Below are positions 2,277 to 9,408 of a DNA stretch of 20,000 nucleotides, in pieces (the stretch's first letter is position 1; each line of letters opens with the position of its first letter). The notes under the pieces are model-generated. The model was not told the DNA's origin, did no database searches, and was given only the letters and a program-made list of their open reading frames with translations. Location of the stretch: NCBI GenBank assembly GCA_964566535.1, contig CAZMIO010000002.1, forward strand, positions 116,905-136,904. The letters are read 5' to 3'. The position numbers were made by a program, and so were the translations under genes. The DNA comes from an uncultured Methanosarcinales archaeon. GTDB lineage: Archaea > Nanobdellota > Nanobdellia > Woesearchaeales > CAZOXR01.

Positions 2277-2300
2277 TGATTTCTATTTACTTTTACTTAT

Positions 2301-2372
2301 GCGCTGGTGGTCTAATGGCTATGACAATGGCCTTCCAAGCCATTTATCCGGGTTCAAATCCCGGCCGGCGCA
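2301..2372 (+). tRNA. tRNA-Gly(TCC), intron-less, CCA not encoded
   Basis: Acceptor GCGCTGG/CCGGCGC, anticodon arm ATGGC-CTTCCAA-GCCAT, T arm CCGGG-TTCAAAT-CCCGG, discriminator A. Confidence 0.97.
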
Positions 2373-2483
2373 TTCATATTTCAATATTTCTTACAAGGGT
2401 GCCTTTTTAAAAGTCCAGACCGGCACATTTTTCCCTTTACCTTTTCCATTACTTTTATAAACCAATATTGCCTCCTATTTCCT

Positions 2484-3206: not shown

Positions 3207-6200
3207 CAACCTGACTGATATTATGCTCATTCATACTTACACCATACAAATTCTCAGCCTGAGAAATAACTCCATCATTATGTGAAATTACTATATACTG
3301 AGCTTTCTCAGCATACTGTCCAACCAATTTAGCAAATCTTTCTGAATTATGCTTATCCAATGCGGCATCAACCTCATCGAGTATATAGAATGAAGCTGGT
3401 TCATGTTCCTGTATCGCAAAAATAAAAGCAAGCGCAGTCATTGTCTTCTCTCCGCCAGACAAAGACCTCATATCCATAAATTTGTTTCCAGTAATCTTTA
3501 CCTTAACACTCAACCCACCATCAAAAGGGTTATCAGGAGTTTCAAGCTCTAGATGCGCACTTCCTTTTGTGGATAAAGTCTCAAATATCTTTCCAAAATT
3601 CCCATTTACCACATCAAAATGTTTCATAAATAAACTTGTTTTCTTATCCTCAATCTCATCCATCATTCCAGTTACATCATCTTTCTCGCTTACTAGCGTA
3701 TCTTTCCTCTCAACCAAACTATTAAACTCTTTCTCAACGTCCTCATAAATCTCTAAAGCCCTCATATTAACTGAGCCAATATCATTCTTAAGCTTCTCAA
3801 ACTTACTTACCTCTCCCTTAAGCTGTTCCTCTGTCTTTTCAGTATCGATTTTAACTCCCTCATATTGTTCAAATTCCTGATTCAATCCAGCTAATATAGC
3901 ACTCAACTCTGCATGCTTGATAGACAAAGTATTATTTCTAATCTCAATCTCCCTACTAACACCTAACTTTTCATTTATAACAGTTTCATTCTTTTGTATC
4001 TCATCACCAATCTCGCCCCTCTTTCCAAATAAACCCTTAAACTTAAGATAAAATTCCTTAACCATTTCTTCTTTACCAGCCAAACTAGTCTGTTGTTCTT
4101 CGGCAGATTTAACCAGTCCCGCCAATTCCTCCTTGAACTGTACTGCTTCCTTATCAATCAACTTTAATATCTCATTTGTCTTCTCTTTCTCAGGATTATA
4201 GATAGTATCAATCTGATTATCAATATTCTTAAGCTCAGAATCAACCTTAATTACCTCTTCATTTATCAGATTCAGCTTCTCATTATAAGTATTCAACTCA
4301 GCAACTAAAGTAGGACTCCTCAGTTGATTAATAACCACCTTAAGCTTCTCCCTCTCAACCTTAACCGCAGCCAATTCTTTATTTTTCTCACTTATCTTAT
4401 CTTGTTCTTCATTTATCTGTCCTTCTAACTTAGTCTCCTTATCCTTCAATTCATCTTTCTGTTTAATAGAAATATTAACATCTCCTGCCTCAAGATGTAA
4501 ACTCTTCTCAGTCTTGATAATCTCCCCTTCTAAATTCGCCTTTTGTGCCCTAAGCTCTACAATCTTATCTTCGTTCTCTTTCCTTGTTTTCTCAAGTGTA
4601 CTAATCACCCCCTCTTGCTCACCAACAATACCATCGTACTCATTAATATTATTCGTAACCTCTTTCTGATTAAAACCCATTCCCTGTTTCCGTTTACCCC
4701 TAAATCCACCTTGCATCACTCCACTAAATTCAGTAACATCCCCATCAACAGTAACCATCTTTGCTTTCCCAATCCCCAACCTTCTAGCAACATCAATATT
4801 ATCCACAATCAGCGTATTTGCAAAAACATGAGAAAAAATCTTTTTGAATTTAGAATCATACTCAATCAAATCAGTAGCCAAACCATGACACCCTTTCGAA
4901 TCAGAAAGACCCTTCACCTCAGAAAACGTCTCCTTCGCCTTAATCTTATTTATAGGTAAAAAAGTAGCCGTTCCAAGCTTATTTTGTTTTAGATATTTAA
5001 TGCAACTCGAAGCAACCTTATCATCCTCAACCACTATACTCCTTATCCTAGGACCAGCAGCAACCTCTAAAGCAAGAGCATATTTAGAATTTACATCTCC
5101 AAGCTCAGAAACAGTTCCATGAATTCCAGCCATCTCTCCCTTCCTAGCAAGAATTTTCTGGACAGCAACATTGCCAGAAGCCATCTCCCTAATACTAATC
5201 TGTCTAGCACTTAATTTTGCAAGCTCTTCCGAAGCATTTTGTAATTTACCCCTCGCACTACCAAGCTGCACAGCTAACGAAGAATCCTCATTTAATCTCT
5301 TGTTCAACTCTAATGTAGAACTCTTAAACTCTTCCCTCTTCTTCTTAAGTCCATCTAATTCATCCTTATACTCCTCTTCAATCTGGGAAACCTTATTTAT
5401 CTTCTCATCAATTGTATTTATCTGATGTAATATCCCATCTTTCTCCCTTATCAGATTATGTTGATTTTCCCTTAAACTATGAATCTCTTTTTGAAGTTCC
5501 TCACCTTGTTTATCTAACTCCTCAGTCTTCTTCTCAATTTCACCAATATTATCTAACTTATTCTTTTCTTTAAACTGCTTAACCTTCCCCTCAATAATTC
5601 CCTTCTCATTCAACTGCTCTGTCTTCTGTGAGCCAATCTCTTCTTTCTTCTTGCCTAATTCATTTAATTTCTCATCAATTTCTTCAACTGCCTTCCCAAT
5701 ATCCTTCTTCCGTTGGTCTATCTTAATAAGCTCATTCTTAAGAGTCTCAATCCTAGAATTCTTCTTAGTAATCTCAATCTTTAGATCTTCAACTTCTTTA
5801 TTGAGTTTAACCTGCTCTACTTCCCCTTTCTCTTCTATCTCTTTAGTTATTTCTTCTATCTTATTCCGTTTCTCTTCATTCCCCTTCTTAAACTCATTAA
5901 TCTTTCCATTTATCTCCCCTAACTCATTATTTCCTTGATCAAGTTTTTCCTTAAATCCTTTTCTATCAACTTCTTTTTTATCTATCTGTAATTTTAACAA
6001 AGATGCCTTATTAATATTAATTTGGTCCCCCATATCCTTAAACTTCAATGCCTGGTCCCTATCCTTCTTAAGCTCCCTCAAGTAAGTATTTTTCTCAGTC
6101 AGTACAATCTCAGCTTCTTTCAGCTTCCCATCAACCCTCTCAAGTTCCCTCACTGCTTTTTGTTTCTTCTCCTCATAGACTGATATTCCAGAAATCTCTT

Positions 6201-8184: not shown

Positions 8185-8301
8185 TAGCGGAGAGTGGATT
8201 TGAACCACTGACCTTTACCCTTAGCATACGCCAATATGGGTGTCTAAGGCTCTAACAAACCGTATGAGCCCATCGGGCACTCCTGACTGCCCTACTCCGC
8301 T
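8185..8301 (-). tRNA. Initiator tRNA-Met(CAT) with two 21-nt introns (37/38 and 43/44)
   Basis: Minus strand reads AGCGGAG TA GGGC AGTCAGGAGT GCCC G ATGGG CTCATA [intron 8262-8242] A CCCAT [intron 8235-8215] AGGTC AGTGG TTCAAAT CCACT CTCCGCT A. The A1-U72 pair and GGG/CCC anticodon stem are initiator hallmarks. The spliced product is 75 nt. Confidence 0.93.
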
Positions 8302-8325
8302 ATACCTTAAGAGAACTTTATTTCA

Positions 8326-8333
8326 TTTATAAA
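8326..8333 (-). promoter_or_regulatory. Archaeal TATA box for tRNA-iMet
   Basis: TTTATAAA 25-32 nt upstream of the tRNA, preceded on the minus strand by purine-rich AAAAGG (BRE-like). Confidence 0.6.
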
Positions 8334-8519
8334 CCTTTTGTCACCCTTATTAAACTACTTAGTCAGCAATAACTTTATTTTAAATCTCACAGTTTAAATC
8401 ATTTAGACATGCTTCAACTATTAAATTATGATTTCTTACTACAACCCACTGGACATGGACCCTCGGAAGATATATAAATCATTTAAATAGTCTCAACAGA
8501 GAGGGAATGGTGATTTAAA

Positions 8520-9200
8520 ATGTTAGAAAAATTAAATTCAAAGATTGCAGAACTGATTGGTATGCATACTGGAGATGGAACATTGTACCGAACCAATACT
8601 GGCACTGTTTGGGAATTAAGAGGGGCCCTTAATGAAAAAGACTACTATTATGACAACGTCATACCTCTTCTGAGTTCAATATTTAACAAAGAATTTAAAC
8701 CAAAATTCAGAAGTGGAGGGAAAAATGGTTGTTTTGGGGTTCAAATATGTAAAAGAGAGGTTACTTCATTTTTTATCGATTATGGATTTAAACCCGGAAG
8801 AAAAACACATACTGTGAGGATTCCTGATTATATAAAAAAATCAAATAAACAAGTAAAATTAAATTTTATCAAAGGATTATTTGATACAGACGGATGTTTA
8901 AGATTTGACAAAAACGGGACAAATAGAAATTGTTATCCCAAAATAGAATTTGGATCTGCCTCTGAAAAGTTAATTGAAGACTTATCTTTATTATTAAAAG
9001 AACTTAAATTCAATAATTATACATGGAAAAGTAGAAATATCTCGAAACTATGTATCGCTGGGAAAATTATGCTTAAAAAATGGATAAAAGAAATAAAGCC
9101 CAAAAACCCAAAACATTTAAATAAATATGAAACGTTCCAAAAACTAGGTTATGTATTACCAAATGCCGAGGTGGCACAACCTGGTACTGCGCAGACATAA
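8520..9200 (+). CDS. Free-standing two-motif LAGLIDADG homing endonuclease-like protein
   Basis: Motif 1 IAELIGMHTGDG and motif 2 FIKGLFDTDG, both with the catalytic Asp. GGTGAT SD at 8509-8514 and TATATAAA at 8471-8478. No intein splicing blocks or flanking host exons visible. Confidence 0.9.
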   Translation: MLEKLNSKIAELIGMHTGDGTLYRTNTGTVWELRGALNEKDYYYDNVIPLLSSIFNKEFKPKFRSGGKNGCFGVQICKREVTSFFIDYGFKPGRKTHTVRIPDYIKKSNKQVKLNFIKGLFDTDGCLRFDKNGTNRNCYPKIEFGSASEKLIEDLSLLLKELKFNNYTWKSRNISKLCIAGKIMLKKWIKEIKPKNPKHLNKYETFQKLGYVLPNAEVAQPGTAQT

Positions 9201-9281
9201 TGATATGGCGTAAGATTGCTACATAGGTTGTAAAAATCCTGTTTCCTTACGGATTTGGGGGTTCAAATCCTCCCCTCGGCG
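9165..9281 (+). tRNA. tRNA-Ser(GCT) with two introns (19 nt at 29/30, 14 nt at 37/38)
   Basis: GCCGAGG/CCTCGGC acceptor, G discriminator, long variable arm (TCC-TTAC-GGA), T arm GGGGG-TTCAAAT-CCTCC. Removing 9195-9213 and 9222-9235 gives a perfect anticodon arm CAGGA-TTGCTAA-TCCTG and an 84-nt tRNA. Confidence 0.92.
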
Positions 9282-9300: not shown

Positions 9301-9408
9301 CCGCAACAATAACTAGTTCATAAAGTTGCGGCAGGGAACTTTACGTTCCCTACAGAGGTCTATCGGACGAAGTCCTTAGGTTGCAAATCAACCCCTCGGC
9401 GTTTTTTT
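9301..9408 (+). repeat. Hairpin cluster ending in a duplicate of the tRNA-Ser 3' end
   Basis: Hairpins CCGCAAC/GTTGCGG, AGGGAAC/GTTCCCT, GGAC/GTCC, GGTTG/CAACC. 14-bp perfect direct repeat CCCCTCGGCGTTTT at 9272-9285 and 9392-9405. Confidence 0.75.

Follow-up and report, generated by a model that had tools for sequence, protein, structure and literature searches.

The 20,000-nucleotide (nt) stretch of DNA analyzed here, hereafter the window, is G000:C2:116905-136904 of the genome of a small marine archaeon, G000 (assembly of 1.45 Mb, 35.5% GC), where G stands for a genome, C for a contig number, and L for a locus. Between its genes for the initiator tRNA (tRNA-iMet) and for tRNA-Ser(GCU) lies a free-standing open reading frame (ORF), at 8520-9200, for an endonuclease of the LAGLIDADG family. 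We read this ORF as a selfish gene for a homing nuclease that is specific for tRNA-Ser(GCU), with a mini-intron at tRNA position 29/30 that would protect the carrier allele from being cut; we favor this reading at a little better than even odds (a probability of about 0.55). The new findings are that the nuclease lineage as a whole is tied to tRNA-Ser(GCU), that three relatives have stranded tRNA 5′ ends, and that the intron association is specific for position.

Searches of species-representative genomes and metagenome contigs gave five further orthologue loci. Two more, L086 and L087, are from the same organism as the window and stand outside this count, and G196, which has the same double match, 830 nt apart, is probably the genome behind L083 and was counted once with it. 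All six ORFs are intact (217 to 235 amino acids [aa]; 45 to 66% pairwise identity). Each is placed immediately 5′ of a tRNA-Ser(GCU) gene, and five of them extend into it. Introns in the adjoining tRNA-Ser were placed with a solver of our own, which lists segments compatible with a bulge-helix-bulge (BHB) motif and scores the cloverleaf that remains once the segments are removed. L083 (60% identity to the window ORF) has introns at 29/30 and in the T loop; L088 (61%) has the 29/30 intron, by eye, on a contig that ends inside the tRNA; and L089 (58%) has introns at 29/30, at 37/38, and in the T loop, the middle one placed by eye, the solver borders being wrong there. L090/L091 (59%), which lies behind a tRNA-iMet with two insertions seen by eye, has an intron at 38/39 only. 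The tRNA-Ser of L084 (49%) is intron-less, and this ORF adjoins, like that of the window, tRNA-iMet (here intron-less) and RNase HII.

In L083, L088, and L089 the unit of nuclease and tRNA-Ser lies in other genomic contexts, without tRNA-iMet. Just upstream of the shared leader module, each of these three loci has a stranded copy of the first 21 to 24 nt of the tRNA (matching at 20/21, 21/21, and 23/24 nt, respectively), ∼790 to 880 nt from the working tRNA gene; L084 and L090/L091 have no stranded end. As judged from sequence, this footprint shows an apparent insertion of leader, ORF, and replacement 5′ part into a tRNA-Ser(GCU) gene that was broken in the D arm. Because the lineage sits at tRNA-Ser(GCU) at all six loci, in differing contexts and at three of them with stranded 5′ copies, its target is most likely tRNA-Ser(GCU). 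The leader, which is common to the window and L083, is itself repeated: blastn found copies of 87 to 96% identity at at least six other places in the genome (C1:195843-195898, C1:203878-203965, C1:206269-206355, C2:115434-115512, and C3:45938-46017 among them), two of which are just upstream of paralogous LAGLIDADG ORFs.

In the mechanism that we propose, the enzyme would cut nuclease-less tRNA-Ser(GCU) genes between the D arm and the anticodon arm, and repair would bring in the leader and the ORF together with a new 5′ part for the tRNA. In the carrier allele, the mini-intron at 29/30 would split the target, so that this allele would not be cut again; the host splicing endonuclease would remove this intron from the RNA. 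The nuclease may later decay and the intron remain.

The product of the ORF is most likely an active monomeric LAGLIDADG nuclease. Pfam assigns it to LAGLIDADG_3 (PF14528; E = 7e-12, 45.8 bits versus a cutoff of 22.5). Its two motifs, GMHTGDG and GLFDTDG, are present in 6/6 orthologues, and the motif aspartates, D19 and D124, are invariant in an alignment of six homologues of 33 to 60% identity. The AlphaFold (AF2) model (pLDDT 86.4, pTM 0.86) has a pseudo-dimeric, two-domain alpha/beta fold, for which the top Foldseek match was I-Tsp061I (2dch; E = 7.7e-11, TM scores of 0.68/0.74), followed by PI-PfuI (1dq3), I-AniI, bI3, and I-DmoI, the highest-ranking matches being LAGLIDADG enzymes of archaeal introns and inteins. 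A sequence search of PDB gave only weak matches (best E = 0.012), and the nearest named relative is from a metagenome-assembled genome of Candidatus Woesearchaeota. An earlier note on this DNA stated that the endonuclease is in neither an intron nor an intein, and we confirmed this: the ORF is flanked by two tRNA genes and has its own start, downstream of the leader and of a GGTGAT box. It is not fully outside the tRNA genes, which corrects the note on one point. The last 36 nt of the ORF are exon 1 of tRNA-Ser plus 6 nt of its intron 1, and the intron supplies the stop codon.

Each of the two flanking tRNA genes was said to carry two short BHB introns, and in this the solver, splicing in script, and intron-less relatives all agree (Table 1). 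In a BHB motif, a helix of 4 bp at the splice sites separates two bulges of 3 nt each; this geometry, which was coded into the solver, is consistent with all solved cases. The central helix has 3/4 bp in tRNA-iMet intron 1 (inner helix 5 bp, outer helix 5 bp) and 4/4 bp in tRNA-iMet intron 2 (inner helix 5 bp) and tRNA-Ser intron 1 (inner helix 4 bp); across the four introns the flanking helices are of 1 to 5 bp. Infernal (RF00005) gave tRNA-iMet 42 bits and showed two insertions. It missed tRNA-Ser even at an E value of 10, and ARAGORN miscalled that gene as tRNA-Cys. Once the introns had been spliced out in script, ARAGORN called Met(CAU) and Ser(GCU), and intron-less alleles of relatives are continuous across all four junctions (for tRNA-Ser, L056, L063, and L076 at both junctions). 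The tRNA-Gly of the window is intron-less, as had been claimed.

Table 1. Features of the window that bear on the nuclease gene and the adjoining tRNA genes
Feature	Coordinates	Strand	Remarks
tRNA-Gly(UCC)	2300-2373	+	Uninterrupted; ARAGORN and Infernal (67.8 bits)
tRNA-iMet(CAU) gene	8185-8301	-	117 nt; exons 8263-8301, 8236-8241, 8185-8214
tRNA-iMet intron 1	8242-8262	-	21 nt; canonical, 37/38; solver; Infernal insertion at same place
tRNA-iMet intron 2	8215-8235	-	21 nt; non-canonical, 43/44; solver; Infernal insertion before T arm
Leader/promoter module, repeated	8413-8497	+	∼85 nt; blastn; upstream of nuclease ORF
LAGLIDADG endonuclease gene, two-motif, free-standing	8520-9200	+	226 aa; Pfam
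tRNA-Ser(GCU) gene	9165-9281	+	117 nt; exons 9165-9194, 9214-9221, 9236-9281
tRNA-Ser intron 1	9195-9213	+	19 nt; non-canonical, 29/30, anticodon stem; contains ORF stop codon
tRNA-Ser intron 2	9222-9235	+	14 nt; canonical, 37/38; BHB central helix 4/4 bp (solver)
Two hairpins and a tRNA 3′-half-like relic (∼9359-9401)	9301-9401	+	T run after relic

If the 29/30 intron belongs with the nuclease, the two should occur together, and the earlier note had proposed to check whether intron presence varies with the LAGLIDADG gene. The 29/30 intron is present in 5/7 tRNA-Ser(GCU) genes abutted by a nuclease and in 3/34 without one (one-sided Fisher's exact test, P = 0.0014), but the independence of this and the other Fisher tests is overstated, which counts against us: the genomes are related, and the nuclease-bearing tRNA-Ser loci were found via the nuclease. 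The seven, each with a LAGLIDADG gene abutting its 5′ side, are the window, L083, L084, L088, L089, L090, and L107, the last with a nuclease of another lineage. The 34 consist of seven genes of our tRNA-Ser set, L009, and 26 of a wider tRNA-Ser(GCU) set, in which nucleases were detected by tblastn with eight queries only, a second weakness of the comparison; L099 (from an unpublished genome), L113 (poor solution), and L121 (no solution) were dropped from the wider set. The position is likewise occupied by an intron in L083, L088, L089, L107, and G159.

Intron position also goes with the side at which a nuclease is docked. Where it is docked at the 5′ end, an intron lies in the D arm or the 5′ strand of the anticodon stem at 9/13 loci versus 9/29 background tRNAs (P = 0.024); where it is docked at the 3′ end, introns lie in the T arm or variable region at 4/9 loci versus 1/29 background tRNAs (P = 0.008). 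Two pairs of relatives differ in nuclease and introns together. G001, from the window's family, has the same neighborhood (tRNA-iMet, a 216-aa ORF that is not LAGLIDADG, tRNA-Ser(GCU), and a transglutaminase-like gene), and both of its tRNAs are intron-less. G045 and G159 are of one genus and share synteny. G045 has no nuclease, and both tRNAs are intron-less; in G159 a LAGLIDADG gene converges on the 3′ end of tRNA-iMet, tRNA-Ser(GCU) has introns at 29/30 and 37/38, and tRNA-iMet has two introns by eye (a poor solver fit, score 31.6). As a separate observation, a stretch of ∼150 nt made up of nested inverted repeats, which may be a structured RNA, lies at ∼3660-3810 of the G159 locus (L081, G159:C21), just upstream of the inverted, intron-bearing tRNA-Ser(GCU); it is missing in G045.

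These results have to be set against a reading in which tRNA-Ser(GCU) is a landing pad only. The nuclease would home to this gene or its flank, introns would accumulate independently, and the link between the two would come from shared descent and ascertainment. Much of what weighs against our own reading supports this one. In G000, 25/34 tRNA genes have introns, and 4/6 multi-intron tRNAs have no LAGLIDADG gene nearby. The 30 tRNA-Ser loci, which cover all isoacceptors, include 12 with at least two introns, and 11 of these 12 have no LAGLIDADG ORF within 600 nt; such an ORF was found at only two of the loci, the window itself (L065) and L057, which has one canonical intron. T-loop introns at 59/60 are present in 16/28 solved type-B tRNA-Ser(GCU) genes, with almost no nucleases nearby. 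The nuclease of L084 has intact motifs, yet its tRNA-iMet and tRNA-Ser(GCU) are both intron-less, and L090 does not have the 29/30 intron even though its 5′ half (positions 1 to 39) closely resembles, by eye, the exons of the 29/30-interrupted gene of L083. Conversely, introns at 29/30 are present with no detectable nuclease in the tRNA-Ser(GCU) genes of G159, L102, and L120 and in other tRNA-Ser isoacceptors (L071, L077, and L078).

Further points on the same side come from other genomes and from the source organism. G088 has the gene order of the window and multi-intron tRNAs but no nuclease; in G008 a LAGLIDADG gene lies 500 nt from an intron-less tRNA-Ser(GCU), and in G027 one lies 248 nt from an intron-less tRNA-iMet. 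Divergence of 45 to 66% at one site could also be compatible with long vertical residence. The window has no clear stranded tRNA 5′ end (≤4 mismatches in 20 nt). The nuclease-bearing allele is present, with 0 differences, in contigs from four runs of four studies, and no empty site or nuclease-less variant of the source organism was found in them. These contigs break at the repeated leader, the span from tRNA-iMet to the ORF being bridged solely by a 193-nt record, and the only joint found in them, from 9194 to 9239, comes from the intron-less tRNA-Ser(GCU) of another organism.

The loci with a nuclease and without an intron indicate that the intron is not always needed, and orphan introns would be the expected residue of a cycle in which nucleases invade, decay, and are lost. 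Covariation of introns with the nuclease is favored by the 5/7 versus 3/34 comparison and by the pairs G000/G001 and G159/G045, and it is undercut by L084, L090, and the common orphan introns. Against independent accumulation stands an excess that is specific to position and side (5/7 versus 3/34 for 29/30; 4/9 versus 1/29 for the T arm with 3′-docked nucleases), together with the joint differences within the two pairs. We consider the landing-pad account rather unlikely, and we retain homing to tRNA-Ser(GCU) with a protective 29/30 intron as the preferred reading.

The two introns in each neighbor of the ORF could also mean that one enzyme drives collaborative homing of the mini-introns in both tRNA-iMet and tRNA-Ser, which is the form in which the idea was first put forward. 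The order tRNA-iMet, nuclease, tRNA-Ser recurs in L084 and L090/L091, and both tRNAs change state together between G159 and G045. However, L083, L088, and L089 have the nuclease and tRNA-Ser without tRNA-iMet, and tRNA-iMet and tRNA-Ser(GCU) are also adjacent where there is no nuclease (G001, G045, and G088). The intron positions of tRNA-iMet vary as well: they are 37/38 and 43/44 in the window, the D loop and 37/38 in L091, and none in L084. Elsewhere, other LAGLIDADG lineages dock at the 3′ end of tRNA-iMet, with T-loop introns. We regard this two-tRNA model as improbable. The proposal that tRNA-iMet is a target or partner of the window enzyme is not supported; tRNA-iMet is a conserved neighbor of tRNA-Ser(GCU) and probably not the partner of this enzyme. 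Of the collaborative homing that the earlier note proposed, what has partial support is the half that concerns tRNA-Ser, where a free-standing LAGLIDADG gene adjoins an intron-bearing tRNA and the 29/30 intron co-occurs with it.

For tRNA-iMet we surveyed 201 genomes and examined 30 loci of 36 matches. Seventeen were intron-less, eight had an intron in the anticodon loop only, three had a similar T-loop intron, and two had two introns. A LAGLIDADG ORF (Pfam) lies within 700 nt of tRNA-iMet at four loci, and two of these ORFs converge on tRNA-iMet genes with the T-loop intron; beside the third T-loop allele (L039) is a short stretch that resembles, by eye, the end of that nuclease gene. With an unpublished genome excluded, non-canonical introns were present in 3/4 tRNA-iMet genes with a LAGLIDADG ORF and in 1/25 without (P = 0.004). 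Because other LAGLIDADG lineages dock on tRNA-iMet in other genomes, the tRNA-iMet introns of the window more likely come from separate events, plausibly involving such lineages. ORFs beside tRNA-iMet in G038 (L025) and G001 (L027) were considered as LAGLIDADG candidates and rejected (BLASTP E = 1.0, hhalign probability 0.1). The exons of tRNA-iMet are identical in G000 and G038, which are of different families, and those of G001, of the same family as G000, differ at several stem positions; the identity between G000 and G038 could reflect transfer of the tRNA gene.

Six intact orthologues at 45 to 66% identity imply purifying selection, and this suggests another possibility, that the ORF encodes a domesticated LAGLIDADG-fold protein with a host role at tRNA loci, such as a regulator or a maturase-like helper, and is no longer a mobile nuclease gene. 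The uniformity of the nuclease-bearing allele across the four runs and the presence of the maturases bI3 and I-AniI among the fold matches would fit such a role. We judge it very improbable: both catalytic aspartates are invariant, the stranded 5′ ends look like insertion footprints and lie in differing genomic contexts, the gene is missing in G001 of the same family, and homologues are pseudogenized in the relatives G016, G006, and G035. BHB introns, moreover, are not known to need a maturase.

A degenerate stranded 5′ end seemed by eye to be present near 8350-8370 of the window, but a MAFFT alignment gave no support for it. The piece with two hairpins and a relic resembling a tRNA 3′ half starts 20 nt downstream of tRNA-Ser and folds at -31 kcal/mol. 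The relic ends in an 8-nt acceptor 3′ strand plus discriminator identical to that of tRNA-Ser (17/20 matches at 9382-9401) and was not called by Infernal at E values up to 10. This piece could be a stranded old 3′ half or the remnant of an attachment site. It was rejected as a split, trans-spliced tRNA (the assembly has no other 5′ half whose acceptor strand matches), as half of tRNA-Ser(UGA) (a gene for that tRNA, with two introns, was found at C1 32538), and, by eye, as an alternative 3′ exon (the splice geometry does not match).

A stranded 3′ end was observed in a relative. At L007 (G006:C4; 1379-1528 and 2305-2381), a LAGLIDADG gene converges on tRNA-Met, and beyond this gene is an exact second copy of the last 37 nt of the tRNA, its T loop split by a 40-nt insert. 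No stranded 3′ exons were found behind the nucleases docked at tRNA-iMet in L023, L038, and G159. A second tRNA-Gln 3′ end in G002 lies behind a scaffold gap of 100 Ns and was dropped.

Across G000, Pfam gave 15 LAGLIDADG_3 matches, 11 of which are in free-standing ORFs of <450 aa, as read from the lengths of the open frames. Four of the 11 abut tRNA genes (the window ORF and those at tRNA-Pro, tRNA-His, and tRNA-Ile[GAU]), which random placement within 50 nt of a tRNA gene would give with a probability of ∼2e-7 (binomial). At tRNA-Pro no stranded front end was found in a 20-nt search allowing ≤4 mismatches. In relatives, 10/13 homologue loci have a tRNA gene within 1.5 kb. The 34 tRNA genes of G000 have no intron in 9 cases, one in 19, two in 5, and three in 1; tRNA-Ser(CGA), with a poor solver score, was entered by eye as having one. 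Multiple introns were found in 2/5 tRNAs next to a nuclease versus 4/29 others (P = 0.21, G000 only). The earlier note had named as a threat to its model that most tRNAs here might be multi-intron regardless of their neighbors. The multi-intron tRNAs (6/34) are not significantly enriched near nucleases, and within this genome alone the objection keeps its force, against our reading as well.

Several other observations concern the tRNA genes of G000 and their processing. A hidden tRNA-Ser(UGA) of 154 nt, from C1:32538 onward on the plus strand, has a canonical intron of 15 nt and a T-arm intron of 55 nt, and it was missed by ARAGORN, Infernal, and a T-loop scan. Two ARAGORN calls of "tRNA-Stop(tta)," C11:3953-4046 and C11:13556-13659, were rejected as suppressor tRNAs; they are miscalls of the intron-bearing tRNA-Arg(UCU) and tRNA-Gly(GCC), and once solved these two calls gave no sign of a suppressor tRNA or an altered genetic code. 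Box C/D motifs are known in some archaeal tRNA introns, and the long introns of elongator tRNA-Met and tRNA-Trp (C1:194834-194955 and C2:147628-147743) contain similar motifs by eye. The splicing endonuclease EndA is encoded by a single gene (C4:26678-26938, plus strand; PF01974, 95.5 bits). Directly after it is a convergent, free-standing LAGLIDADG ORF (C4:27223-27456, minus strand; a 238-aa frame); the gene of the intron-removing enzyme seems itself to serve a homing nuclease as a docking site.

Collaborative homing has precedents in phages, and the cyanophage psbA intron is reportedly one of them. The monomeric, two-domain archaeal enzymes I-Tsp061I and I-DmoI (2dch and 2vs7) are also similar to the window enzyme, and their host rRNA introns are likewise spliced at BHB motifs; however, their ORFs lie inside the intron that is mobilized, whereas the window ORF is external to the tRNA except for a 36-nt overlap, and identity is 16 to 18%. 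In the case of mobE with the nrdB intron and I-TevIII, a free-standing nuclease gene lies beside a gene with an ORF-less intron, which both disrupts the target and moves along with the nuclease (PMC2790892), as we propose here. That system involves self-splicing group I introns in phage protein genes, with cleavage and immunity both shown (PMC2790892); here the host gene is an archaeal tRNA gene, its BHB mini-introns would be spliced by proteins, and cleavage and immunity are predictions. SegB of phage T4 is a free-standing GIY-YIG homing endonuclease, encoded in a tRNA gene cluster, that promotes inheritance of its own tRNA region (PMC2330249). It is like the window ORF in being a free-standing nuclease gene among tRNA genes, but it is a GIY-YIG enzyme of a phage and is not known to involve introns or an overlap of ORF and tRNA, whereas the window has a LAGLIDADG enzyme in an archaeon.

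The stranded tRNA 5′ ends of L083, L088, and L089 have an analogue in the WHO elements of Torulaspora and Lachancea yeasts, which home into a conserved gene without an intron or intein, replace one of its ends, and strand the old ends (PMC7282813). There the target is the 3′ end of a eukaryotic protein gene, FBA1, and the nuclease is an intein-like zinc-finger protein; here the 5′ end of a tRNA gene and a BHB intron are involved. The tRNA-Thr(GGU) locus of Caldiarchaeum subterraneum, for which a tRNA gene disruption model was proposed (Sugahara et al. 2012, PMC3293823), resembles ours in that an inserted element has a fragment of the tRNA 5′ end left behind upstream of it and the working copy gained an extra intron. 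That element, as described in the same source, is of 1.8 kb, with a DNA recombinase and plasmid-like integration, whereas the inserted gene here is for a LAGLIDADG nuclease, in an arrangement found again in several genomes. None of the systems compared has a free-standing LAGLIDADG gene together with an archaeal tRNA gene and a mini-intron spliced by proteins. Our literature search found no paper linking LAGLIDADG genes to archaeal tRNA introns; the sole paper found that names both Woesearchaeota and LAGLIDADG concerns group I introns. A preprint from 2026 on the tRNA introns of Asgard archaea tested several routes of arrival and found no general one, and its available portion does not mention "homing" or "LAGLIDADG."

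For the open question of how archaeal tRNA genes come to hold non-canonical and multiple introns, this locus and its relatives offer a testable candidate route. The locus could also supply new long-site nucleases that recognize tRNA gene sequences. Intron-laden tRNAs explain why many tRNA genes of these genomes escape standard tRNA finders, and among 41 genomes the count of free-standing LAGLIDADG ORFs is negatively correlated with the count of tRNAs detectable by Infernal (Spearman's rho = -0.40, P = 0.009). Beyond this one lineage, we suggest tentatively, as a possibility that is still on the doubtful side, that free-standing LAGLIDADG nucleases may plant non-canonical BHB introns in archaeal tRNA genes by docking, cutting naive alleles, and decaying to leave orphan introns. 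If this is true, repeated rounds of nuclease invasion would build the heavily interrupted tRNA sets of the Woesearchaeota type and would strand tRNA fragments.

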